DNA from: Gammaproteobacteria bacterium
Lineage (GTDB): Bacteria; Pseudomonadota; Gammaproteobacteria; JBCCGL01
NCBI GenBank assembly: GCA_965277715.1
Contig: OZ255836.1
Span: forward strand, 3,392,001-3,456,000
Length of the DNA stretch: 64,000 bases
Direction: 5' to 3'
The position numbers were made by a program, and so were the translations under genes. The notes under the pieces were generated by a model. It was given only the letters and a program-made list of their open reading frames with translations. It was not told the DNA's origin and did no database searches. Shown piece after piece: positions 12,010 through 64,000 of this stretch. Every line of letters begins with the position of its first letter. Within the stretch, counting starts at the first letter, position 1.

Positions 12010-12537
12010 ATGGCTGAAACACCCACCCCTATAGAGCAGTTTATGTACTGGCAGTGCCGTATCCGCCAGGAATCGGTACGCAAACTTGATGGCCGCCCAA
12101 CGGCGGGTATGCGCCCAACCGTATTGCGGGTTGATACCCGTGAATCGCTCGGTACGATTAATGTATTGATTACCAAACGTGAACCCGCCGACTACACCAG
12201 CCAATTTCGCCATACGGTTAAAAAGACACAAGACCCAACTGAACGTATAAAAAGCGGTTTGCAGTTATTGGCAGAAGCTTACTACCAGCAACCTAAAGGG
12301 TTTTCCACCGAGCTGGTGGCGCTGTTTGCATTGGACTCTGAACTGGCGGGTAATTTACTGAGCACCGGTGAATGTAACCTGGCCTTTGCACAAGACACCC
12401 AAAAACACCGCCTGCACTGCACCGTGCGTGAAGTGCCTGAGGATGACCCGGCCCACCAGGCCATCTACTGGCACAACCATTTATTTAATCCGCGTATGCC
12501 GGGACGTGTGCAGGTGTTGGGGTTTACGCCGCAATAG
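12010..12537 (+). CDS. Hypothetical protein, possibly FMN-binding split-barrel (PNPOx-like)
   Basis: 175-aa ORF; the fold is guessed from the pattern only. Confidence 0.5.
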   Translation: MAETPTPIEQFMYWQCRIRQESVRKLDGRPTAGMRPTVLRVDTRESLGTINVLITKREPADYTSQFRHTVKKTQDPTERIKSGLQLLAEAYYQQPKGFSTELVALFALDSELAGNLLSTGECNLAFAQDTQKHRLHCTVREVPEDDPAHQAIYWHNHLFNPRMPGRVQVLGFTPQ

Positions 12538-12669
12538 AATGCATGTAAAGCGTGACCTCTGGTGAAAGTAGGTTCAGCACTTAGTCTGATTCAGCTAATG
12601 CTTTTCAAGCCGGTTAGCCTGAGCGATTTCGACATAAGTATCCAATCGGGTTTCCAGCTTAATAACTCA

Positions 12670-12687
12670 TTAAAGGGGTCAGTACCC
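12670..12687 (+). repeat. RAYT-associated motif TTAAAGGGGTCAGTACCC
   Basis: Exact 18-bp direct copy at 13331-13348. Confidence 0.85.
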
Positions 12688-13320
12688 AATGGCACTAAGT
12701 TAAGCCGCTTTAGCTTGCCAATATTCAGTTTTTAAAACGTTCCGTGGTCGAGTCATTAATGCCCGTGGTTTAGGTCGCCTTTTTACCACTCTTGGTTCAA
12801 ATCTAAAAGGTCGATGAAGCACACGATCATCCGCAATCGCTGCATATAAATAATCAAGATATTGCCGTCTTTTTTGTGCTGGACTCTGCCCACTACCAAG
12901 TGATGAAGTGCTTTGTCGGAGTGTTTGCAAAACACCTTTAAGACTTAGCCGATCAACCGGTGTGTCATGTCGGTTCGTACAATGCTGACGTGTATTTGTC
13001 GTAAAGTTAAGGTCTTTGGAAGTTCGTTATGCTGCTCTTTTGTGTAACGGGTCGCTTTTGTGTGTTTAGGTTTTTGCCATTCGATATGAAGGTCATTATC
13101 GGCTATCTTCTTTTTGGCCTGGGAGGCAGTGCTGGGCGTTCTCCGCGCCAATGTAACGACACTGTCCTGTCAACCGTTCGTCGAGAGAGGCAGTCAATAT
13201 CGTAGAAGCTGCAAAAACCTTTATCACCTAAGAAAATGTCACTTTCATTGAAGGTATCCCATTGTTCTTCTAAAAGTCTTAGCTCATAACTTTTTTTATT
13301 TCCCAGTGCATAGCTCAGAA
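12687..13320 (-). mobile_element. IS4-family remnant, heavily deleted and frameshifted
   Basis: Terminal CAATGGCACTAAG; fragments RFEPRVVKRRPK, LPKTLTLRQI and LGDKGFCSF lie in different frames. Confidence 0.7.
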
Positions 13321-14941: not shown

Positions 14942-16412
14942 TTACGGCCTGGTGTCACAGCCACCACACCACGCCCCACTGTAGGCGTTGGGCGCATTAC
15001 CAAATCGGGTACCGCCGAAGTAAGACTTTGGGATCCCATAATCATGAAATACATCGTGATGGTAGTCGGAAATCTGTTTCGGACTCAGTAAGTGGTTGAC
15101 GCTTGTTCTATCTTTCGTAACAAAGTTAATGTGGGCCTCCACAAGCTTGAGACCTATTTGCTCCATCGTCACCGTTAAGCCATTATCACTGATATAGGAC
15201 TCCAATCGGCTCCAGGTATAGCTTGCCGAAGCTCGCTCCCACCAACTGGCATCGACAAAGTCGCCATATCCCCAACCTATCAGTGCAGTACGCGCGACCG
15301 GATCACTGCTGTCAGAATACCGGGACTTCCAAAAACCAATAATGTCGCCGTCTTCAGCCAGCGTTTTTTGTGCGTCCGTTATAGGTGAACCTCCCTTCCC
15401 AGCACCCGACTCCGCATTATGCCAATGAGTAAACGCTGCACTAGCCGCCCCATTTGCAAACTTCCCCCCCACCAAGCTTAGATGCCGTCCCCCCAATCAC
15501 CGCAGCAGTAACCGTCCGATGAATTTTATAATTAGCGGACTTCCCCCAAATATCAAAATTCAACGACTTTGCCCCTGCAGCAAAGGCCGACGAAACAAAC
15601 CCATAACCAAACTTTCCGCCTTGCGCAACCGCCAAAGTACCACCAACCACACCATTAGCAGCCGCGTTCAAGGCATGCTGACCTGCACCAGCATTAATGT
15701 CAAAGGTTGAACCAACCCAACTACTGGCTCGTTGCCCAAGATAATACGTTACCCCCGCTACAGCGGCACCTCTAGCGGCTTCCGAGGGCGAAGCCCCATA
15801 CGCTCTGGCTATGTCGTATTGCGCCGCCGCATAACACAGCGCCGCAAAAGGGCCACAAAATGCTGAGCCAATGGTCGCCGCGAGATTGGCAATTTTTGGA
15901 CCTACAGCCCGAATAACGGCTCTTGTAGCTTTCTTCACAAGTCGCTGCAAAGCCGCCGCCGGCCCTAATACAAGACCCGCAAGTCCCCCGATTGCTTTTT
16001 TAAGCAATCCCTTTAAAAAATACCCACTAGGATCCGTATACTTCATCGGATTATTCTGCACATAGCTATAGCGACTATAGCTCTGGCTCATGCCCGTCAA
16101 TCGATTCGTGGTCGGTATAAGCTCGGGTGGTAAACAGTAAACGCATGCTGTACAGCGACCCCGCACCTTGCCAGTCAAAATGGCGTTGTTTGCCCCAGGC
16201 ATCGTAACTGCGCCGATCAACCACTTGACCGTCAGCATCCGTCATCGTGTCGATACTGCCGAGCGCGTCTTTGTGCAGATAGTGGGTTTTAACACCTTCC
16301 TTGCTGGAAACACTGTGGCTGGCGACCCGATTGCCCGCAGCGTAGATGTAGTGTTGATGCCGGGTGTGTTGACCGTTGTCAGTGACCTGTTTCTCGTACA
16401 ATCCCCCTACGT
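14942..16412 (-). pseudogene. Orphan Rhs C-terminal module (core end, Gly/Ala-rich pre-toxin region, toxin domain); 5'-truncated and frameshifted
   Basis: YLHKDALGS...YDAWGK...TTRAYTDHE, then YSYVQNNPMKYTDPSG, then GGKF repeats. The NGRxYDP segment is missing, and there is a +1 shift at the G7 run (15464-15470). Confidence 0.85.
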
Positions 16413-17574
16413 ACCAGGAAGCGTATGCGACGTCCAGTTATTGGTCGCAGGTTTTCACACGCTACGGCCATACCGTCAAACTCATTAATCCAGCATACGT
16501 ACGCCCTTACGTTAAAACAAACAAGAACGATGCAGCGGATGTAGAGGCCCTGTGTGAAGCAGCCTCACGTCCGAATATGCGATTTGTTCAGCCCAAAACA
16601 CCCGACCAACAAGACAGCCAATTACTCCACCGGGTGCGCAGTCGGTTAGTGTCAAAACGGACGAGTTTAAGTAATCAAATAAGAGGGTTACTGGGTGAGT
16701 ATGGGCTGATTATTCCGGTAGGTATTCGCCACGTCCGCCAGCACTTGCCTGCGCTTTTAGAGGATGCTGAAAATGCCTTGTCAGCCACAGCACGTGAAGT
16801 GTTCAGTGCTTTGTATGATGAACTAGTGGAGATTGATAAACGCGTAACACACTACACAAAACGGTTAACCCAGTTGAGCAACCAGCATGAGCGCTGTCAG
16901 CAATTAAAAACACTGCCGGGTGTAGGGCCTCTGGTCGCCACTGCCTTGTTTACAGCAATGGGCGATCCGGGTTTCTATAAAAACGGGCGTGAGTTTTCCG
17001 CCTTTTTGGGTCTCGTTCCTCGTCAATATAGTTCGGGGGGCAAAACACAACTCAAAGGTATCAGTAAACGCGGGGACGAACACGTGCGCACTTTGTTGAT
17101 ACAGGGGGCGCAAGCGGCATTAAGTCGAATGCCTAAACACGATGATGGGCTAAGTCGTTGGGCCTGTCGTGTCAAAGCACGTCGGGGCCATTGTGTGGCG
17201 GCGGTGGCATTGGCCAATAAGCTCGCCAGAATTAGCTGGGCGGTAGCGGCTAATAATACAACTTACGTGCATAAAACAGTTTAATAACATCGTTGAAGAT
17301 TTCTTACCACGAGGTAGCGAAAGAGCAGTAAAGGGTATAACAGGTTAAACCGGCTCAGACAGAACCTGGAGGGGGTCATGGTCTTCACAGACCGATTGCT
17401 TGATGAGGTGTCTGAGCACGGTTCCCATTATGGCTCTGGACGGATAAACAAATACAATCCGTCCTATCGAGAAGCCGGATATATGACTGCTAACCTTATT
17501 TACTGTGTCTGCTCTGAACGCTAAAAATTGAATGAACGATTAAAAAATTGTTGAATTTAACTGCGGGTCCATAT
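16413..17574 (+). mobile_element. IS110-family (IS1111 group) element, 5'-truncated, with a complete-looking downstream non-coding end
   Basis: KNDAADVEA, LPGVGP, GLVPRQYSSGG and ALANKLAR motifs; ORF stop at 17284; ~290-nt non-coding region ending GGGTCCATAT. Confidence 0.85.
17285..17574 (+). ncRNA. Putative IS1111 seekRNA/bridge-RNA-encoding region
   Basis: Stem GCTCAGACA/TGTCTGAGC (17353-17361/17409-17417) encloses GGGGTCAT; GAAGCCGGATATATG segment matches the element end. Confidence 0.6.
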
Positions 17575-17707
17575 ATGACCCCTTAACTTTGGGCGCTATT
17601 TCCAATTTCTCGGGATATCCTTGTATATTTCTATATAATGCCTGTCCTATTTTCCTTCTTGATAAATAGTTTGGGAATTTATACGGCCAGAAAGTGGCAC
17701 ATTACAA

Positions 17708-18322
17708 TTATGGATGATCTCTATCTATTTTCTGTTGCCGCCCAATGGATAAAGATTTATTCATCTCATACCTAGACAGCAGCAGAATTTTAGCCCTTTC
17801 ATATTTATCACGGTTATACGTAGGAGAATTTAAGTGAGGGGCTCTTCCTATAGTTAATAACGCTATTACTTTTTCTACATTTAACTCTCTCAAATCCAAA
17901 CCATAATAATGACTAGATGCATTGGAAAGACCCCGACCTTCTTCATATGGCAAATAGTAACCATATAACGATAAAATTTTATCATCCGATAAGCTGACAA
18001 GCATAGCAAAGCGAACAAGCCAAAATTTTATGGGCCAACTACTAATTTTTTTCTGCTCGCTATTGTAATACCTCATCCCTACTACTTTAGCTACATAGGT
18101 CTTGACACTGTTAGGTAAAATACCTGCATCCTTATTTGATCTTTCTACCCATATAATTGTTTGCTTTATTTCATTCGTTAGCGCTTTCTCGGACTCAGAT
18201 AAATTCTGATACTCATTTTGAATAAATTCATTAATTCCACTTAGGTATACATAGCATATACAAAATATGAAAATTACGAAGCCTACTAAAACAAAAGAAG
18301 TTCTTCTGCACACTAAACTCAT
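17708..18322 (-). CDS. Membrane-anchored protein with a degenerate GT51 transglycosylase-like motif, putative immunity protein
   Basis: N-terminal TM; GLSNASSHYYGLDLRELN...RAPHLNSP resembles the GT51 GxxAAxxYF..L..P motif; AT-rich; 5 nt after the toxin stop. Confidence 0.55.
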   Translation of the reverse strand: MSLVCRRTSFVLVGFVIFIFCICYVYLSGINEFIQNEYQNLSESEKALTNEIKQTIIWVERSNKDAGILPNSVKTYVAKVVGMRYYNSEQKKISSWPIKFWLVRFAMLVSLSDDKILSLYGYYLPYEEGRGLSNASSHYYGLDLRELNVEKVIALLTIGRAPHLNSPTYNRDKYERAKILLLSRYEMNKSLSIGRQQKIDRDHP

Positions 18323-18792: not shown

Positions 18793-20457
18793 TGTCAAGG
18801 TAGTTGTCCGTTTTACTATGCTACTTGCTTTTCAATTCCATTGTGCTTTTGTCTCATGGCCAAGCCTTCCTTTTCCGGGTTTAACCACACCCCCGATACC
18901 GGTTCGAGGTGTTTAATATCCTGGCTCCAGCGTTCAGGGTGTTTGGCCTTTGCTTGTTCATAAACTGCTTTTCTGGCTGCCAGTATCGCGTGATCTTCGC
19001 CTTTATGACGCGAGGCTGGTGTCACAAACCCAATGCCGCTATGGCAATGAGAGCCGTTGTACCATTGCACAAATCCATGCACCCAGTTTCGCGCAGAGGC
19101 TAAACTATCAAATGGCTTTGACGGATAGGCAGGCGTGTATTTTAAGGTTCTAAACAGACTTTCTGAATAAGGATTATCATCGCTTACCGATGGCCTACTA
19201 AACGAAGGTATCACACCCAACCATTGCAGTTTTGCTAACATGGTAGCACCTTTCATCGGGCCACCATTATCCGCGTGTAATACCAATTGACTCTGGCTGC
19301 ACCCCTCCGCTAAACAGGCACGCTGGATCAGCGCCGCTGCCAGATCAGCCGATTCACTGTCATGCACTTCCCAGGCAACAATTTTACGACTGTAAATATC
19401 CATCATCATGTAAAGCCGGTAAAACCACCCGGTTATGTTCGATTTCAAAAAGGTAATATCCCAAGACCACACCTCGTTTGGCCTTGATGCCAGGTAGCTG
19501 TTAGGTTTGTGCCGTTTTTTAGGCGTCGCCGCCTTACCTTGCCGCTGCAGTTGGTTTTCCGACTTTAACACCCGATAGAAGCTTGACTCTGACCCAATAT
19601 ACACACCTTCATCCGCCAATTTGGGCACAATTTGCGAGGGGGGTAGCGCTTGGTAGTTCGCTTCATTACAGGTGGTGACAATCAATGCCCGCTCTTCTGC
19701 TGTGAACTTATTACCAGGCGCCTGTCGATGAGCGCTGGGTCTGCCATCAGCACGGACAGTACCCGCGTTTGCCCAGCGTCGGTACGTCTTAGGGTGTCAC
19801 TCAAGCACTTTGCACGCTTTGCTTAATGTAGCGCCAGCGACAACGGCCTCTTTGATTAAACGGATACTATTTTGGCGATCTGAATGGCAGGTCATTCGTC
19901 CTCTCCCTCCCCCCAGATCGCTTGGGCCTTTTTTCTAAGCACCAGCAAAGCGGCTGTTTCGGCTAACGCTTTCTCCTTTCGGTGCAGGTCTTGTTCGAGA
20001 CGTTTAATACGTTTATCCGCTTCTCTACGACTGGTTTGTAAACGTTTCGTTTGGGCGCGATCCCAGTCATTGGCTTGTTCACAAGCCATTCGCCATGCCT
20101 TAATCTGATCAGGGTACAAACCACGATGACGGCAATAAGCTGAAAGGTCTGTTTCGCTTAATGACGCACTTTCCAGAACCGCTGAAAACTTATCCGAAGA
20201 ACCCCAACCTGCTGGTGTCAAATCGCCATCTGGCATGAGTTCGCCTTTCGCTCTTGCTGGGGCTCGCCAACTATAAAGCGTACCTTGTGCAATGCCTTCT
20301 TCTTTGGCTAACCGGGAAATTGTCTGATTGTTCGGCGGCAGCATCTTCTTTAAAACAGCGGCCTTTCTTTCTATTGGATAACGCATACCACTCTCTCTTT
20401 GCCTCCTGTAATAACTTATTGAATCCCAATTTAGGGAGGGGGACAACTACCCTGACA
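18793..20457 (-). mobile_element. IS3-family element (orfA 19892-20386; orfB 18816-19895 with an in-frame TGA at 19797-19799)
   Basis: IRs TGTCAAGGTAGTTGTCC / GGACAACTACCCTGACA; DDE motifs WSWDIT, HADNG, YSESLF; ATGA overlap between orfA and orfB. Exact ends are approximate. Confidence 0.88.
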
Positions 20458-48892: not shown

Positions 48893-50481
48893 TGTCAACC
48901 TGTTTCAAGCCACAGTTACTCAAGTTACCATATATTTAGCCCGATTTAGTGTTGGGAAGTTGACGGGTGCATCGTGATCTATATTACCCAGTTCATCGCG
49001 CACGGGATTAATGTAGACCTTCGCAGGCGGCATCCTGACAACAGGCCGCTGATTGACAAATCGCTCTGCATGTTGGACATACTTTTCATTGAGTGCCTGC
49101 TGACGAACCTCACTGAGTGGTATGTACTGCCCAGTAAACACCTGACAAGGTGTGAAGCCCTCCAACGCACTGTGACAGTGCTGATGGTTATACCAATCAA
49201 TATACTCAGTGCACCATCCATTGGCATGGCTATAGCTATCAAAGCGACGCGGGTAGTCAGGCTGATACTTCAGTGTTCGAAATTGGCTTTCACTATGAGG
49301 ATTGTCATTACTCACGCGGGGTCTGCTGTGGCTAGCGGTGACCGCCAACTCGCCCAGTAAGTCAAGGTAGCAATGTGCGGTCATCGGTGCCCCTCGATCC
49401 TGATGCAGCGTCAGCTGGTCGGGTCTAATCGCGTAACGTGTACTGGCCTCCTGAATGAGCTGCTGTGCCAGTGCACTGTTTTCTTTATGGGAAAGCATCC
49501 AGGCCACGATGTAGCGACTGAATAAATCCATCACCACATAGAGCGATAAATAAACGCCGCGCTTAACGGTGGCCAATTTTGTAATATCCCATGTCCAGAC
49601 CTCATTAGGCTGACTGGCCGAAAGCCTTGGCACTGCGTTGGTTTGCCCAGGACGCTGTTTTCGGCGTTCCCCCGACTGATCGGACTGACGCAGCAGGCGG
49701 TGCATGGTGCTGATGGAGCAGAGGTAAATACGGCGACTCAGCAAGGTATGGTAAACCTGCGCCGGTGGTTGATCATAGAACGCTTCACTATTGAGCGTAT
49801 TCAATACCACAGAGCATTCTTCTTCACTCAGTTGGCGTGGCTGATGGCAAGTGATTCGCACGGTTCCTGCTGGTTTGGGAGGGCCACAGAAATGGCGGCG
49901 GCTTTGCTTGGCCCGGACGTGTGACCGTGACAATGCCAATACCTTACAAGCCAGACGTTGGGACACTGAGGGTGGGCGGTCAGTCAACGCGGTATTCACT
50001 GCTCGATCCCGCTGTTCAATCGGTCGAGCATCGCCAAGGCTTTTTTTTGGAGTTCCAGACAGTCATCCTTAAGGGCGATTTGTTTTTCCAGACGGTTTAC
50101 TTGTTTTTCAAGCTGCGCTATCCGGCGCTGCTCAGACGTCATTTGCGGTGCAGGGCCGGGCGCGCTTTTTGATAGCCCTGACAAACCGCCTTCGGCCAGT
50201 TCTCTTCGCCACTGAGACAATTGATTGGAGTAAAGCTTCTCACGGCGTAGCAAAGCGCCAAGCTGTCCATGCTGGCAAGCATCAGCTTGATTGATCATCT
50301 TTAGCTTATAGGCTGCTGTAAAAGTGCGGCGAGTCTTTTTCTCAAGTGTCCGATCAGGCTTGATCTCACATGACTCAGGTTGTGGTTTATCTAACATTGG
50401 TTTTGGCATTGTTCTCACTCTCGATAGCTGCCCTGATTTAGATGTTAACTTAAATCATAGTGGCTTGAGGTGAGGTTGACA
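48893..50481 (-). mobile_element. IS3-family element, apparently intact (orfA 49996-50409, orfB 48920-49999)
   Basis: IRs TGTCAACCTGTTTCAAGCCAC / GTGGCTTGAGGTGAGGTTGACA; WTWDIT, HQDRG, HSESQF. Exact ends are approximate. Confidence 0.88.
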
Positions 50482-50612
50482 CACAGGGATGCACCTCTGA
50501 AATCATAAGTGAGAGAGGGCAGTTATTATATAAAGAGGCGTAAAAGCAATCTAAAAATTAAAAATAATATTTAGATTAACCGATCCTGGCTTTTTTATGC
50601 AGTCACCAAAAT

Positions 50613-50876
50613 CTATTGTTTAGCGCAAGATCCACCAAGTTCTTTTTTAAGGCTACTACACGAAGAGCGTGCATATCCACAACGACTTGTACCATTGAGT
50701 ATATGACAGTAGGTGTTTTTGGATATGTTGTTCTTTGGCTTATGACAGTGATAGTTGCTTGTTTTCCGGTTGGTATGGCACCCAGAGTCATTGGTTCTAC
50801 CGGAGTGGCCATAGCTTGAAACAGAAAAACTGACAAATAGCAGAAGAGATAGAACCAGGATAGTTTTTCCGAACAT
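50613..50876 (-). CDS. Small secreted YHYH-type protein
   Basis: Signal peptide, then HSGRTNDSGCH...YHCH, and a Cys-rich tail. Confidence 0.7.
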   Translation of the reverse strand: MFGKTILVLSLLLFVSFSVSSYGHSGRTNDSGCHTNRKTSNYHCHKPKNNISKNTYCHILNGTSRCGYARSSCSSLKKELGGSCAKQ

Positions 50877-58185: not shown

Positions 58186-58763
58186 GCGGGCACCAGCCCG
58201 GAAAAACCCATAAATGCCAGCGACATCAACCCGGCAGTAATCAACGCGACTGCGTTACCTTTTAGTGGCGCGGGCACATCGGCGACATCGATACGCTCGC
58301 GCATCGCGGCGAACAACACCAGTACCAGCGTAAACCCAATCGCCGCCCCAAAGCCGTACAGGGCTGAATCGATAAAATGGTGGGTCTGCTGCACATTGAG
58401 CAGCGCGACCCCAAGCACCGCACAGTTGGTGGTAATCAACGGCAGGAAAATGCCCAGCACGTTGTACAGCAGGGGGCTGCTTTTATGCACCACCATCTCG
58501 GTGAACTGCACCACGGCGGCGATAATCAGAATAAACGCAATCGTGCGCAGGTATTCGATATCGAAAGGCGCCAGCAGAAATGTATTTGCCAGGTAGCTGC
58601 ACACCGAGGCCAGTGTGAGCACAAACGTCGTCGCCAAACCCATGCCGATGGCCGTTTCCAGCTTGCGTGATACCCCCATAAACGGGCACAGGCCGAGAAA
58701 CTTCACCAGCACAAAGTTGTTCACCAAAATGGTGCCAACCAGGATAAGCGCGTAATCAGACAC
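58182..58763 (-). CDS. rnfA: Rnf/Rsx complex subunit A
   Basis: [19 protein letters not shown]. Confidence 0.95.
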
Positions 58764-58979
58764 GAATAACTCAGTAATTTAGTCAGGTATAGCCAAATGG
58801 GCGCGAATTCTAACAATTCATTACCTGTTGTGACAGGTCGAATGTGTTATATGTATATTCGCGACTAAACAGCCCTTCCCAGCTAACGGCCTATTCAGTG
58901 CAGGCGGTTGAGCAGTTGGATATTACCGAGGTGTTTTACCTTTTCATAAGGTCGACGGTCAGCGGTAATAAACAACGCG

Positions 58980-59299
58980 TTGCCAACCATGCGATCAATT
59001 GCCCATGCCCTGCTTGAGTGTTGCCAATCACTTTGGTTTTGGCTTTCTCAACGCCAATATCGCGTAGCCACAACACATCAAGTTTTGCTTTGCTTACATC
59101 GATACCAATGATGTTCATAATTCTCTTACCCCACCTTGTTTATGCAGTCTCAAAGGACTCGGATACCATTCAGATTGTTGAGAAATTTGACGTGTGAGAC
59201 CTTATCTACTTAACAGACTCAATAGTCTAAGGATACAGTCAGGTTCTTCACACGCCCTGATGCAATATCAGCTAAACATTACATCGAGAGAGATACAAG
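58980..59299 (-). mobile_element. IS110-family (IS621/IS492-like) remnant: left non-coding end plus the first ~46 codons of the recombinase
   Basis: MNIIGIDVSKAKLDV; on the minus strand the end begins CT-TGTAT. Confidence 0.85.
59119..59290 (-). ncRNA. Putative bridge RNA region
   Basis: Stem CGTGTGA/TCACACG encloses CTGTATCCTT-hairpin-GTAG; a second loop contains ATGGTATCC...ACAAG. Confidence 0.65.
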
Positions 59300-59384
59300 G
59301 GATACAGGAGCTAGAGCAACGCAGGAGTAGTTGCCGACGACTGTATGGATACAGGAGCTAGAGCAACGCAGGAGTAGTTGCCGA
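59300..59384 (-). repeat. 47-bp-period tandem repeat (GGATACAGGAGCTAGAGCAACGCAGGAGTAGTTGCCGA, two copies)
   Basis: Direct copies start at 59300 and 59347; same family as 3135-3198. Confidence 0.9.
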
Positions 59385-59560
59385 GGAGCGGTAGCTTCGC
59401 ACTGTATACAGTGGAGAAAGACACTTACGTCTCGCGAACGAAAACCCTATAGCAGCACAGACAACTCAGCTATAAGGCGAATCGGTGCATTGACGAATCC
59501 CGGAATTTATTTCATGCACGTTCCTAACAGGTCAAACCACCCATGGGTATCTACCCCGGT

Positions 59561-59979
59561 CTATTCGGTAATCCCGGCAATAGACTCAGCGAGTTTCTTA
59601 GTGATAAAACGCAGCTTTCCAATCGACATTTTTTTTGTGGTCGACATAATAAGAACGGATTGCTGCAACAAAAAACGCGTTTTTAAAAAAAGAATATTGC
59701 CCGCATCGGTTTCAATGATGCCAAGCTGCAATGCACCACCGGTCATTGCCCGGGCTGAAGCACCACCTAATGAGTAAAGTGTGCTCGATATAGCGGAAAT
59801 TTTTTCCTCTTCAGCCCGTTCAGGTGTGCGGGCCAACGAATGAAGAGTGAAACCATCTACCGACGACAGGCTAATAAGCTGTATTTCTATATTATTGGCA
59901 AAAAAAAACCGACGAGCTTTGCCAGCTTTTTTTGTGCATTGGTGGGTTGGTTATTATCAGGGGGGTTTTTCTGGTTCAT
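59561..59979 (-). CDS. Roadblock/LC7 (MglB-like) protein, split by a -1 frameshift near codon 18-27
   Basis: ATG overlaps the GTPase stop. The second frame reads [10 protein letters not shown]...[14 protein letters not shown]...IIETDAG. A7 and T9 runs lie at the break. Confidence 0.65.
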
Positions 59980-60509
59980 AAATGTTTATTCATTGCGTTG
60001 AGCGTGTAGAGCAACGTGACGGATGAATGCTTTTCTCTACCGTCAATTTTTAAAATAGGCGCGTTTATACCCTGCTGTTCGAAAATGCAATGAACCTCCA
60101 GTTTAAGCGTCTCAAGGATATCCTGCGATGCATTCTCAGCGTGAGTGATAACTGCAACGCACGGTGTGTTGTTACGTTTTGGATCAAAGAACTTTAGCAG
60201 CCCAGCGATCTCTTCATAGTCGTTTTTCTCCTGGTACTTGATCATGACAACCAGACCCCATAACGAGGTGTTAACAATCTCCCACAAAAAGGAGTACCGG
60301 CTTTGTCCCGGTACACCGTATAGGCCCAGCACGGTATCGTCCGCCAGTGTGATCCGGCCATAATCGATACCGACGGTAGTGTGCGATTTGCCGATGTCGA
60401 TTGTCGACTCCACGTCAGTTTTAACCGTATCGATTTCGCTTAAAGTGCGGATGATACAGGTTTTGCCTGTACCGACCCCACCTATAAAAGCCAGCTTCCT
60501 ATACTCCAT
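59976..60509 (-). CDS. MglA/CvnD-like small GTPase
   Basis: [30 protein letters not shown]. Confidence 0.85.
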
Positions 60510-60513
60510 GGTG

Positions 60514-61281
60514 TTACATTAACCGCCGCAGATATATTTTCACCTTGTGGTAAAAATTTTCTGAGAGTGAAGATTTCAGTGACGCGCTATGCAGGCTTTG
60601 TGCTTGGATGCGCATATCCTTTTTAGTATCTAAAATGCCTAAAGCAAACAGAATCTTTAATGTTCTGTCCAGTTCTTTGCGTTGATTGTTGTACATAGAC
60701 ATTGCTTGCAGTTGGCTGTAAGAGTACGGCCCATTGATCAGCAATGAGCAGAGCTCGATCGTCTCTGGCGTGAGTTCAATTTCATCGAAATCAGGCCATC
60801 GCAATAACGTCATACGCGACTGTGTTATATCTGACTCACGTCGGGTGGGCGTATGCTTGTTTTGCAGGGTGGCGGAAAATTGGGTAAGTTGGTACAGAAG
60901 TGCTTTTTTCTTGTTGTCTAACCGGTATAGGTCATTTTGATGTCGTTGAAAAAAATGTTTGAAGTGCAGGTTTTTATCAACTTCATTAATCAATTTAATT
61001 GGGGTTTCTGGGAGAAAACGCTTTTCCAGGTACGCCTCAATTAGCAGGTCGACGTTATTGTGACGCGAGTCCTGGGAAATTGTTTCCAGCAGTGTGTCTA
61101 CTGATTCCACTGGTCCTTCAAGCAGGTGTAAATAATACCCATTGGTATAGCCGAGAATACTGGTAATGCGATTGCGTATATTTTTTTGCCGCGATACCTT
61201 TAGTATTTTTGACAGGCCGAGAGGAACGACATAGCTACCCACCTGGCCAGTCGCCTGGCTAATATAAAAAACCTCTTTCAC
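60514..61281 (-). CDS. BLUF-domain protein with a C-terminal WPDF/winged-helix-like domain
   Basis: YISQA...ILKVSRQKN...IT...LEGP...I.QDSRH; C-terminal LLRWPDF. Confidence 0.75.
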
Positions 61282-61297
61282 GTCTTGAAGCGGAAAC

Positions 61298-61329
61298 TTA
61301 CCCCTTGAACCAAAAGGCTCAAGGGGTAA
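61298..61329 (-). terminator. Intercistronic hairpin TTACCCCTTGA...TCAAGGGGTAA
   Basis: 11-bp perfect stem between the first two genes of the module. Confidence 0.6.
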
Positions 61330-61336
61330 ATAGTAT

Positions 61337-61696
61337 TTAAACGCTTAAATCTTCTTCTATGCTTTTAGCTTTGCGCCGTGCCAGCGCGAGATTGGATTTA
61401 CTTTTGTCCAGTACCATATAAATATACAAACCTTCATGCTCCTTGGATGGCCGTATGATGTGTATTTGATGGGTTAGGGTAATCAGTATGTCTTCTATTT
61501 CGCCTTTAATATTTAAGCTTCTCATGGTATCCATTTTGGCTTTTACCACCTCTGAATTTCCTGCGGCAGCCAATTCCAGATCGACACCGCCGCCGACTTT
61601 TCCAAGTGCCATTCCTGATGTATAGTCGGCAATACAGCAGCCCATAATTCCGTCACACTTCATCAATTCGTTTAAGCTATTGGTTATATTTGCCAT
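61337..61696 (-). CDS. Roadblock/LC7-like protein
   Basis: DGIMGCCIADYTSGMALG...LAAAGNSEVVKAK...IEDILITL...NLALAR; GAGGA RBS. Confidence 0.8.
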   Translation of the reverse strand: MANITNSLNELMKCDGIMGCCIADYTSGMALGKVGGGVDLELAAAGNSEVVKAKMDTMRSLNIKGEIEDILITLTHQIHIIRPSKEHEGLYIYMVLDKSKSNLALARRKAKSIEEDLSV

Positions 61697-62119
61697 GATT
61701 TTCCTCTAGGGGTTTTTTGGTGGTTAGTCATAAAAAAGGGTGTTGCTTATATCACGTTGAAGTCTATTTTAGGGAATCGCTAAAAATACATGTCGTCAGT
61801 GATCACTGATAGACAAGATGGGAAATCCTACAGCGTCCTCATATAGACTTAATATATTGCTCCACTCGTAAGTTGCCGGAGTGCATGGTGCTATTGGTAT
61901 CCAAGAAAAAGTTTATTTGTATAAATGCTTTTCTCGTGCTACTAGATCTGTAATATCCAGGCGATGCACTGTCAATTTAATGGCGCTTCATCAGTTTGAC
62001 AAAATACCCAGGCATTTTTGCTGCTTTTTCTTAGACGTTAGAAAAACCATAGTTAACCGGCTACAAAACTTGCCGAAGTATAGGCATATATTTCATATGT
62101 ATCAAGTATCAATCAGAAT

Positions 62120-62149
62120 CAAAAATCAATGGGGTCAGATTCGATTGAT
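62120..62149 (+). repeat. Left terminal inverted repeat of RAYT #2
   Basis: AAAATCAATGGGGTCAGATTCGATTGAT is the reverse complement of the right-hand units with one mismatch. Confidence 0.9.
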
Positions 62150-62203
62150 ATTTGATAATCAATCGATTAACCTACCGCCCGTTTCCGCTAAGCGTTATAA
62201 ACA

Positions 62204-62929
62204 ATGGCCCGCCTTCCCCGCTTTGTTATTCCCGGTCACCCGCAGCACGTTATTATTCGTGGCAATAACCGGCAGTCGATTTTTTATTCAGACGACGACT
62301 ATCGATTTTATCTGGCGAAGTTGAAAGCAGCCTGCGACAAACACCATTGTGATCTGCACGCTTATGTTTTGATGACGAATCATGTGCATTTATTGATTAC
62401 GCCTTATGCAACGGACGGTATCGGTAAGGCCGTGCAGATGCTGGGGCGTTACTATGTCCGGTATTTTAATGACACCCATCAGCGCAGTGGCACGCTCTGG
62501 GAAGGGCGCTATAAAGCGACGCTGATTGATTCAGAGCGTTATCTGTTGACGTGTTACCGCTACATAGAATTGAACCCGGTGCGGGCGCAGTTTATGGTGG
62601 ATCACCCGGCGGACTATCCCTGGTCGAGTTACCGCTATAACGCACAGGGGCAGGCAGATGAAAACATTGTCCCCCACGCTGAATACCAACGGCTTGGCCG
62701 TGATCCACAAGCGAGGCAGGTGGCGTATCGCGCGTTGTTTAAAGCGCATATTTCGGAAAAAGTACAGGCGTCAATTCGCGAGTCGACGAATAAAGCCTGG
62801 GTGCTGGGTGGCAGTGATTTCAAAGCGCGCATTGAAAAGCAAGTAAACCGCCGGGTGTCACCACAAGCGAGAGGTGGTGATCGAAAATCTGCTGGGTATC
62901 TGTCTCAATCAACGATCAATCGAGTCTGA
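62204..62929 (+). CDS. REP/TIR-associated HUH tyrosine transposase, RAYT/TIRYT type
   Basis: MARLPR, RGNNRQ, MTNHVHLL, LWEGRY, YIELNPVRA, WSSY. Confidence 0.92.
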   Translation: MARLPRFVIPGHPQHVIIRGNNRQSIFYSDDDYRFYLAKLKAACDKHHCDLHAYVLMTNHVHLLITPYATDGIGKAVQMLGRYYVRYFNDTHQRSGTLWEGRYKATLIDSERYLLTCYRYIELNPVRAQFMVDHPADYPWSSYRYNAQGQADENIVPHAEYQRLGRDPQARQVAYRALFKAHISEKVQASIRESTNKAWVLGGSDFKARIEKQVNRRVSPQARGGDRKSAGYLSQSTINRV

Positions 62930-62972
62930 CCCCATTGATTTTGATCAATCGAGTCTGACCCCATTGATTTTG
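62915..62972 (-). repeat. Two tandem 29-bp right repeats ATCAATCGAGTCTGACCCCATTGATTTTG
   Basis: Exact duplicates; the first contains the RAYT stop codon. Confidence 0.92.
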
Positions 62973-64000
62973 CGGAGGAGGATTAGCCAGTGCTTTGGGC
63001 CTGACCGGGGGGGCTTGCACCGTGCGCTGGGTAAACTGTGGAAGGGTAACGGGCAGCCGGAGCCTGCCCGTTTGTCTGCGTTTCAGGCGTTGCTCGATGC
63101 CTCTGTTGCGCGGGTGGAACAGCGGCGTCTGTCTCTTCCCAAGCCGCTTTATCCCGCTGAATTGCCGGTTGTTGAAGCCCGCTCAGAAATTCTCTCGACG
63201 ATTAAAAATCATCAGGTCACGGTTATCTGTGGTGAAACCGGCTCGGGTAAAACTACGCAGTTACCCAAGATGTGTATGGAGTTGGGGCGTGGTGTCCACG
63301 GTTTTATTGGCCATACACAACCCCGCCGTATCGCGGCGCGCAGTGTCGCCGCAAGAATCGCCGGCGAGCTGGGGTCGACGGTGGGGGGCGCGGTCGGTTT
63401 TAAAGTGCGCTTTTCTGATCAGGTGAGCACTGACAGTTACCTGAAATTGATGACCGATGGCATTCTGCTCAGTGAGATTCAGCATGATCGTTGGCTGAAT
63501 CAATACGATACGTTGATTATTGATGAGGCACATGAACGCAGTTTAAATATTGATTTTCTCCTCGGTGTTTTAAAACAGTTACTGGTTAAACGGCCTGATC
63601 TGAAGTTGATTATTACCTCGGCCACTATCGACCCGGAACGCTTTTCGACACACTTTGATAACGCCCCGATTATCCGTGTCGAGGGGCGTACCTGGCCGGT
63701 GGAAACCCGTTATCAGCCCTTGCTGAGTAGCCTGGAGGGCAGCGGTGAAGAACCGGATCTGGTCGATGCGCTGGTAACAGGCTGTGAGATCCTGATTGCC
63801 GAATGCCGGGGGCAGCGTGGCGATGTATTGGTGTTTTTGCCTGGCGAGCGGCATATCCGCGAGTGCAGTGAAGCCCTGCAGAAACATCAGGCACACAGTA
63901 AGCATTTGGCCGGTGTTGAGGTGTTGCCACTGTTTGCCCGCCTGACTCCGGCAGAGCAGGGGCGTATCTTTGCTCAACACAGTAAGCGCCGTATTGTGCT
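62970..64000 (+). CDS. hrpA: ATP-dependent RNA helicase HrpA, partial; start uncertain
   Basis: ELPV, GETGSGKTTQLPK, TQPRRIAARSV, DEAHERSLN, TSAT, VFLPGE. Confidence 0.92.
   Translation, partial: MRRRISQCFGPDRGGLHRALGKLWKGNGQPEPARLSAFQALLDASVARVEQRRLSLPKPLYPAELPVVEARSEILSTIKNHQVTVICGETGSGKTTQLPKMCMELGRGVHGFIGHTQPRRIAARSVAARIAGELGSTVGGAVGFKVRFSDQVSTDSYLKLMTDGILLSEIQHDRWLNQYDTLIIDEAHERSLNIDFLLGVLKQLLVKRPDLKLIITSATIDPERFSTHFDNAPIIRVEGRTWPVETRYQPLLSSLEGSGEEPDLVDALVTGCEILIAECRGQRGDVLVFLPGERHIRECSEALQKHQAHSKHLAGVEVLPLFARLTPAEQGRIFAQHSKRRIV

Follow-up and report, generated by a model that had tools for sequence, protein, structure and literature searches.

A BLUF-bearing variant of the Group 3 MglA-type GTPase module and its probably light-blind copy in a gammaproteobacterial contig

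Can a flavin-based blue-light sensor feed directly into the nucleotide cycle of a bacterial small GTPase? The question is raised by a four-gene operon at positions 59,561 to 61,696 of a 64,000-nucleotide stretch of DNA from a Gammaproteobacteria bacterium (assembly GCA_965277715.1, contig OZ255836.1, positions 3,392,001 to 3,456,000; hereafter the window). A first-pass annotation had described the operon as a roadblock gene, an accessory gene with an N-terminal BLUF domain, an MglA-like GTPase gene and a second roadblock gene, and had proposed direct light or flavin input into a small-GTPase switch. The analysis reported here makes it fairly probable that the locus belongs to a BLUF-bearing Group 3 MglA-type module, in which the accessory protein would act as a BLUF-gated, DUF742-like exchange factor, and that the copy in the window is light-blind and partly eroded.

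Gene content of the operon and its adaptor

The list of open reading frames (ORFs) of the window contains four co-oriented frames on the minus strand, namely RoblA (gene 1, 61337..61696), BLUF-X (gene 2, 60514..61281), the small GTPase (gene 3, 59976..60509) and RoblB (gene 4, 59561..59979). The frames and spacings given in the first-pass annotation were confirmed, with 55 nt between genes 1 and 2, 4 nt between genes 2 and 3, and an ATGA overlap in which the ATG of gene 4 (59979-59977) covers the TGA of gene 3 (59978-59976), but gene 4 proved to be frameshifted at a run of nine T (see below). As also annotated, no kinase or membrane receptor is encoded among the ORFs of the locus.

BLUF-X is a protein of 255 residues with a GTG start, composed of a BLUF domain, a helical linker and a C-terminal domain with a Trp-Pro motif. 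Residues 1-89 (61015..61281, minus strand) match Pfam BLUF (PF04940) with 66.5 bits against a cut-off of 25 (E 2.3e-18), and a phmmer search matched the protein to 22 solved BLUF chains, with residues 1-100 aligning to the BLUF domains of bPAC, AppA, BlrB, PixD and BlsA; the BLUF assignment of the N-terminal domain is thereby upheld. The C-terminal domain (residues about 150-255; 60517..60834, minus strand) combines the motif W162-P163 with a stretch resembling a winged helix, a spacer of low complexity and a basic, amphipathic tail. Its Trp-Pro pair is invariant across 49 adaptor C-termini from BLUF and non-BLUF operons, and local hhalign comparison with the adaptors (X) of non-BLUF operons gave a probability of 99.4%. 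These matches support the view that what had first been named a 'WPDF' domain is a conserved partner domain of Group 3-type GTPase operons.

Gene 3 encodes 177 residues that score 25.3 bits against the Pfam Ras family (cut-off 21.6), and a profile of this protein and its relatives, of which 220 were found, matches Sec4/Rab structures at 3e-13. The P-loop is intact, G2 reads Thr44-Thr45 without an arginine finger, G3 reads G-V-P-G-Q with valine where most relatives carry threonine, G4 reads T-H-A-E and lacks lysine, and a D-x-R motif (D156-G-R158) lies near the end. The part of PMC4316618 that was consulted ascribes to MglA Groups 2-5 and 2-3 a threonine where Group 1 has its arginine finger, a G3 of the GTPGQ type, a G4 devoid of lysine and a G5 of the DAR type. 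This correspondence supports an assignment of gene 3 to these groups, in keeping with the MglA-like call of the first-pass annotation. Within the same part of that paper (Wuichet and Sogaard-Andersen 2014), Group 3 MglA systems are described from beta- and gamma-Proteobacteria as a conserved unknown protein accompanied by homologues of MglA (one) and MglB (one or two); the conserved protein, or adaptor, has a receiver-like N-terminal region and a winged-helix-like C-terminus, through which the systems were proposed to regulate transcription. An example is the system of Snodgrassella (PMC11112851). Judged by its motifs and gene content, the locus is a BLUF-bearing variant of this proteobacterial Group 3 MglA-type module. 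The proposal of an undescribed arrangement therefore has to be narrowed to the BLUF link, as the module without BLUF has already been described.

The two roadblock assignments differ in strength. RoblB is clearly a roadblock protein of the CvnB/MglB type, its family profile matching the solved roadblock proteins 9jue_D (3.2e-8) and CvnB5 (3leq; 2.1e-7); the second of its two frames by itself matches Robl_LC7 at E 3.4e-4 with 20.7 bits, under the cut-off of 23. RoblA (119 residues) is divergent and at the same time the most conserved member of the module, with 69% identity to the first gene of two other BLUF loci (L002 and L011). When RoblA was used as a query, 80 related loci came up in beta-, gamma- and alpha-Proteobacteria, Myxococcota and Streptomyces. 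Its roadblock-superfamily signals are sub-threshold (LAMTOR5, E 0.048 in Pfam; PDB 7yh1_D, E 0.011 by profile), weak matches to LAMTOR5 and Robl_LC7 occur in 13 and 7 of 37 relatives, respectively, and its profile does not match that of RoblB (probability 1%). Because these signals are weak, though consistent, and the two profiles remain unmatched, we call RoblA roadblock-like with reserve. Of the two roadblock genes annotated on either side, one is thus well founded and the other sub-threshold.

No Pfam family covers the C-terminal part of the window's adaptor or of 40 further adaptors scanned. Compared by hhalign with 15 Streptomyces DUF742 domains, however, the 49 adaptor C-termini matched with 91.7% probability (E 7.9e-7) over 77 columns, among them those of the helix-turn-helix and of the C-terminal tail. 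When the DUF742 alignment was column-shuffled 100 times or reversed, no score came close (best shuffle 14.9 versus 37.1), and an earlier local run with slightly different sets yielded 81.9%. The link is of interest because the DUF742 protein MfpC binds MfpB, a conservon GTPase, and serves this GTPase as guanine nucleotide exchange factor (GEF), and the roadblock protein MfpD is the GTPase-activating protein (GAP) of MfpB, according to the consulted part of PMC11343762. Several results weigh against this reading of the adaptor. A profile of the BLUF-type C-termini alone does not match DUF742 (1.3%), the Pfam DUF742 model matches no X protein scanned, and general winged-helix likeness could contribute to the score; moreover, the receiver (REC)-like N-terminus of ordinary Group 3 adaptors was not recovered when their profile was compared with the PDB. 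Solved winged-helix regulators are matched weakly by the C-terminal profile (AdcR, 0.008; a Rrf2-family regulator, 0.0081; SmtB, 0.09). Since the Pfam model finds no match and winged-helix likeness may add to the score, a distant kinship of the adaptor C-terminal domain with DUF742 is likely but unproven.

Other sensors fused to the Trp-Pro domain were looked for as well. Among the 120 of 182 matches listed, none carries a Pfam domain; these matches are adaptors of 319-329 residues, and the few with a source name come from Acinetobacter. At a Marinicella locus (L033:2721-3059), the adaptor measures only 112 residues and consists of the Trp-Pro domain without any N-terminal domain.

Recurrence and origin of the BLUF form

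The BLUF architecture is not confined to the window. With the C-terminal 163 residues of BLUF-X as query (E ≤1e-3, 1.84 billion proteins), 35 representative proteins, nearly all of 230-290 residues, matched in the same place, and their alignment places BLUF in front; one match (P0151, 713 residues, eight short matched stretches) was discounted. A scan of metagenome contigs with an alignment of close GTPases identified 80 loci. Where the GTPase is at least 38% identical, a BLUF ORF lies immediately upstream in 38 of 49 loci, and BLUF is present in 37 of the 43 such loci that offer at least 760 nt of upstream room; at the 31 more distant GTPase loci, BLUF was never found upstream. All four genes were seen in 30 metagenome loci. 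Among genomes, full-length BLUF-X was detected in 2 of 399 scored members of a 400-genome sample of the class, and in 11 of 121 genomes of one gammaproteobacterial order, that of the Arenicella genome; a cultured species of Arenicella seems to possess two of the operons. These 11 genomes hold 16 BLUF-X genes, 11 of them in complete operons and another in a GTPase-less operon adjoining a complete one. The remaining four stand alone without a GTPase, an observation that weighs against the preferred reading. A word-based search with the whole BLUF-X protein returned a single protein, 97% identical; a separate scan of genome contigs gave one locus, which is a ribosomal-protein operon and was rejected as a false positive. 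Public names of BLUF-X relatives are limited to 'BLUF domain-containing protein' or 'hypothetical'.

Two gene orders occur among BLUF loci: RoblA, BLUF-X, GTPase, RoblB, as in the window, and BLUF-X, GTPase, RoblB, RoblA. Most proteobacterial loci of the RoblA scan show the order X, GTPase, RoblB, RoblA, with an adaptor of variable N-terminus and shared C-terminus. Pfam detected BLUF in 3 of the 41 adaptors scanned (window, L002 and L011), a set made up of the window's X and 40 of 63 upstream ORFs after omission of near-duplicates and four evident wrong-frame ORFs. A tree was computed from 56 GTPases of a 139-row set, comprising every unique BLUF-linked row and 21 further rows. One branch, with support 97/88, separates the BLUF-linked GTPases from the remainder. 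A single change suffices to explain BLUF linkage in 98% of bootstrap trees, and the 139-row tree agrees; the window GTPase sits on a long branch. That many unrelated contigs share this four-gene set shows the adjacency to be more than chance. Collectively, these results support a recurrent BLUF architecture of single origin rather than a one-off. No paper linking BLUF to MglA/MglB, roadblock or conservon systems was found among those listed in a literature search that covered main texts and few subscription journals; the BLUF form could already be contained in supplementary table S2 of PMC4316618.

The flanks of BLUF loci hold no gene conserved beyond close relatives. On one contig (G443), two BLUF-type modules stand in tandem (L278 and L284), the first without a GTPase gene, and in another case (L285:3073-3690) an additional BLUF-only ORF of 206 residues lies beside one of the two operons of G436. 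The flanks of L104 and L113 encode, judged by eye, plasmid replication-like and small mobilization-like proteins, which hints that some BLUF-type modules ride on mobile DNA.

State and setting of the window copy

In BLUF domains, the conserved tyrosine of the first strand is the electron donor, and a Trp/Met pair on the last strand serves as signal relay. The consulted parts of PMC4780082 and PMC10278134 describe the glutamine beside the flavin as central to the light response. Residues were mapped by alignment to the BLUF domain of bPAC (5m27, E 2.9e-8). The window copy retains Tyr6, which aligns with the bPAC tyrosine (Phe in the variant entry 5mbk), but its glutamine, Trp and Met sites are occupied by His52, Thr93 and Ile95, respectively. 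In a set of 75 different BLUF-X family sequences, the glutamine site holds Gln in 67, His in 4 (the window copy and three others) and Gly or Leu in 3 more; Tyr is found in 62 and Cys in 8, Asn is kept in 72, and Trp in 53. Two observations weigh against light sensing throughout the family: no more than 30 of the 75 retain Met at its site, and a sub-clade (L124, L125, L129-L131, L138 and L139) has Cys for Tyr. Light sensing is therefore probably not uniform among its members. The Cys sub-clade keeps Trp and Gln, except for L138 with Leu in place of Gln, and its gene order is BLUF-X, GTPase, RoblB, RoblA. For the window copy, canonical light gating is doubtful and the photocycle probably lost, because His52 replaces the essential glutamine and both the Trp and the Met sites are changed. 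The same doubt applies to the light input originally proposed for this operon.

RoblB is the second altered gene. The frame starting from ATG 59979 ends after 30 codons, and the roadblock-like part lies in another frame (59950..59561) that is open for 116 codons. Since the ATG frame stops early and the roadblock part continues in the other frame past the T9 run (59900..59908, minus strand), the gene is frameshifted there. From about this run onward, the second frame aligns with intact homologues of 130-150 residues and retains Asp-Gly-Phe, Glu, Gly and Arg where these are conserved. Contigs from four sequencing runs of four studies (X1, X2, X3 and X6) cover the T9 run without inserted or deleted letters and differ from the window by 0 to 19 single letters; X6 is identical to the window and may be its source, and X1, X2 and X3 are labelled sponge metagenome. 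As contigs of four studies show the same state, the frameshift is not the error of one assembly. A run of nine T has a length that allows transcriptional slippage, by which the frame would be restored in part of the transcripts.

Single-letter differences among the four runs allow a view on constraint. Four synonymous and no non-synonymous differences were counted in the GTPase, one and none in RoblA, two and one in the second frame of RoblB, and six and eight in BLUF-X. Small as these numbers are, they suggest that the GTPase core is maintained and the sensor-adaptor is under relaxed constraint. With Gln replaced by His and RoblB frameshifted, yet a GTPase and a RoblA that still look maintained by selection, the window copy is most readily understood as a family member that is light-blind and eroded in part, though not dead.

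The operon lies in a low-GC patch (58600..62200) with transposase remnants at its borders, as seen from the guanine-plus-cytosine (GC) profile and Pfam matches. It is flanked by a transposase fragment and rnfA on one side and by a Y1 transposase and a helicase gene on the other. The fragment (58936-59118, minus strand), located between rnfA and the operon, is a 60-residue remnant of an IS110-type transposase N-terminus with a sub-threshold Pfam match (E 0.0048), and the IS200-like Y1 transposase gene was identified by Pfam at 62204-62929. The operon has a GC content of 0.438 against a window mean of 0.514, which places it in the fifth percentile of 2136-nt windows, and BLUF-type operons elsewhere average 0.434. 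Low operon GC, the similar GC of other BLUF-type operons, and the bordering IS110 fragment and Y1 transposase make horizontal acquisition plausible, probably from a lineage with a lower-GC genome. Against this stands the uneven GC of the window: composition alone is weak evidence of transfer because other low-GC patches are present. Values of at most 0.46 were found for 2136-nt windows starting at 12101-12801, 16001-18201, 19301-20301 and 49801-50801. The best RnfA match is only 85% identical.

Several smaller features surround the genes. A 16-bp hairpin lies in the spacer between genes 1 and 2 (61296..61331, minus strand), immediately after the stop codon of gene 1, with a centroid energy of -26.7 kcal/mol, a minimum free energy of -30 kcal/mol and a z-score of -4.8; none of 200 shuffles folds equally well. 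It could be an attenuator, a transcript-stabilizing element or a repeat unit. The Y1 transposase gene is bracketed by inverted repeats of 28-35 nt (62122-62156 versus 62908-62971), and a 29-nt repeat is present in two perfect tandem copies at 62914-62971, a layout (62122-62971) typical of transposases associated with repetitive extragenic palindromic (REP) sequences, the REP-associated tyrosine transposases. Two direct copies of a 41-nt repeat lie at 59300-59340 and 59347-59387. The stretch 59400-59530 represents a short repeat dispersed in the host genome, with a contig depth 5 to 13 times that of the operon and many loose ends in all four runs. Scans for promoters and terminators gave no more sites than shuffles give, Rfam had no match within 58700-63000, and anti-phage defense models had no meaningful match.

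Proposed mechanism, alternatives and relation to known systems

The mechanism that we consider fairly probable for the family starts from an adaptor whose usual N-terminal domain would have been replaced by the BLUF flavin sensor. By analogy with MfpC, the Trp-Pro domain may bind the GTPase and promote nucleotide exchange, or at least serve as a GTPase-binding adaptor, and the two roadblock proteins would stimulate GTP hydrolysis as GAPs. Blue light received by BLUF would alter adaptor activity and, through it, the nucleotide state of the GTPase. All of these functional assignments derive from homology and gene context. The modular picture fits because adaptors range from the C-terminal domain alone (L033) to forms with an N-terminal region called receiver-like in the consulted part of PMC4316618, or with BLUF. 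A bolder and more tentative version, which we regard as possible but less likely than not, takes BLUF-X for a natural blue-light-gated exchange factor or adaptor of a bacterial Ras-like GTPase, the His52 form for light-blind or constitutive, and T9 slippage for a device that tunes RoblB.

Alternative explanations concern the output, the window copy, the sensor and the linkage itself. The adaptor might be a light-regulated winged-helix transcription factor with no exchange-factor role, the GTPase and the roadblock proteins modulating or relaying its signal. This follows the transcriptional proposal for Group 3 systems made in the consulted part of PMC4316618 and has the weak profile matches to AdcR, the Rrf2-family regulator and SmtB, together with weak helix-turn-helix matches in Pfam, in its favor; yet all winged-helix matches are below significance, an invariant Trp-Pro pair and a basic C-terminal tail are foreign to DNA-binding winged helices, the operons have no conserved target gene next to them, and DUF742 also carries a helix-turn-helix while MfpC, in the part of its source consulted, is a GEF. 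We judge this output rather unlikely. A somewhat stronger competitor, though still improbable, holds that the module was acquired horizontally and that the operon of the window genome is a decaying relic of it without function. The frameshift in gene 4, the lost Gln, Trp and Met sites, the eight non-synonymous against six synonymous differences in BLUF-X, the position of the low-GC patch between the IS110 fragment and the Y1 transposase, and the long branch of the GTPase all point that way. They are set against three intact frames out of four, five synonymous differences out of five in the GTPase and RoblA, and a second frame of gene 4 that stays open for 116 codons with its conserved positions and two synonymous differences to one non-synonymous. 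The same state is also met in contigs of four studies, and the nine-T run could permit transcriptional slippage.

It is less probable still that BLUF, in the family or at least in the window copy, is a flavin redox sensor or a fixed structural module rather than a light sensor. His at the glutamine site here and in three other members, Gly or Leu in three more, a whole sub-clade with Cys at the tyrosine site, and the occurrence of the window's DNA in runs with the label sponge metagenome, possibly a dim environment, would agree with such a role; the retention of Gln in 67, Tyr in 62 and Asn in 72 of 75 sequences is nevertheless the pattern expected of working photoreceptors. That the BLUF gene stands beside the GTPase operon by accident, with no functional link, is very improbable. 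The four orphans among 16 genomic BLUF-X genes are what can be said for it, but throughout Proteobacteria non-BLUF operons encode the same C-terminal domain directly upstream of the GTPase, BLUF-X takes this position in 37 of 43 informative loci with spacings of 4 nt and overlaps, and the linkage appears to have arisen once and to have been inherited together since. We therefore retain the BLUF-gated, DUF742-like adaptor as the preferred reading of the family, with a light-blind copy in the window.

Group 3 MglA systems are widespread in Proteobacteria and, to our knowledge, have no known input signal, output or adaptor function. If the bolder version holds, BLUF-X would be the first example of a photoreceptor coupled directly to a prokaryotic small-G-protein cycle, and Group 3 MglA systems would gain their first known input signal. 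In that event, the His52 form, whose DNA occurs in runs that carry the label sponge metagenome, would represent a derivative that is light-blind or signals constitutively, and the T9 run in a GAP-like gene would tune the amount of that subunit by slippage. A light sensor on the adaptor would offer an experimental handle, as the system could be switched by light and the GTPase-controlled process read out. For photobiology, it would add the small-GTPase cycle as a new class of BLUF output and a compact natural template for light-controlled nucleotide exchange. Finally, the link between adaptor and DUF742 would unite proteobacterial and actinobacterial G-protein systems in one scheme, in which a separate kinase, a receiver-like domain or a BLUF domain serves as sensor, or no sensor is present.

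Among known systems, Group 3 MglA is closest. It shares with the window operon the gene set of adaptor, MglA-like GTPase and one or two MglB/roadblock homologues without a kinase, the GTPase motifs (Thr-Thr G2, GxPGQ G3, lysine-less G4 and D-x-R), the adaptor C-terminal domain and a gammaproteobacterial host. It differs in the adaptor N-terminus, receiver-like in the consulted part of PMC4316618 and BLUF in the window, and in gene order, which is RoblA-X-GTPase-RoblB in most BLUF loci and X-GTPase-RoblB-RoblA in many non-BLUF loci. Group 1 MglA/MglB, the polarity switch of Myxococcus and Thermus, likewise pairs a Ras-superfamily GTPase with a roadblock-fold regulator; its MglA has an intrinsic arginine finger beside the G2 threonine and a TVPGQ G3, whereas the window GTPase has threonine at that place and G-V-P-G-Q, and the window operon has an additional adaptor gene. 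The flanks of BLUF loci showed no link to motility genes. Known BLUF photoreceptors include the enzyme fusions bPAC, BlrP1 and AppA and the short BLUF proteins PixD, BlsA and PapB, which act through partners. Solved BLUF domains align with the N-terminal domain of BLUF-X, and the family keeps Tyr, Asn and Gln, the last of which is missing from the window copy. Known outputs are a cyclase, an EAL domain or an anti-repressor, in contrast to the putative GTPase-adaptor domain of BLUF-X, an output not found in the literature searched. In the actinobacterial conservons (CvnA-D; MfpB-E), one operon likewise unites a small GTPase, a roadblock protein (GAP) and a small protein with a helix-turn-helix, there the DUF742 exchange factor, a likeness reflected in the profile matches of RoblB to CvnB5 and of the adaptor C-terminus to DUF742 (91.7%). 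Their GTPase belongs to a different group, however, and the Pfam DUF742 model misses the window adaptor. Conservons have one roadblock gene and a sensor histidine kinase (CvnA), whereas the window operon has two roadblock genes and no such kinase, its sensor being fused to the DUF742-like protein itself.

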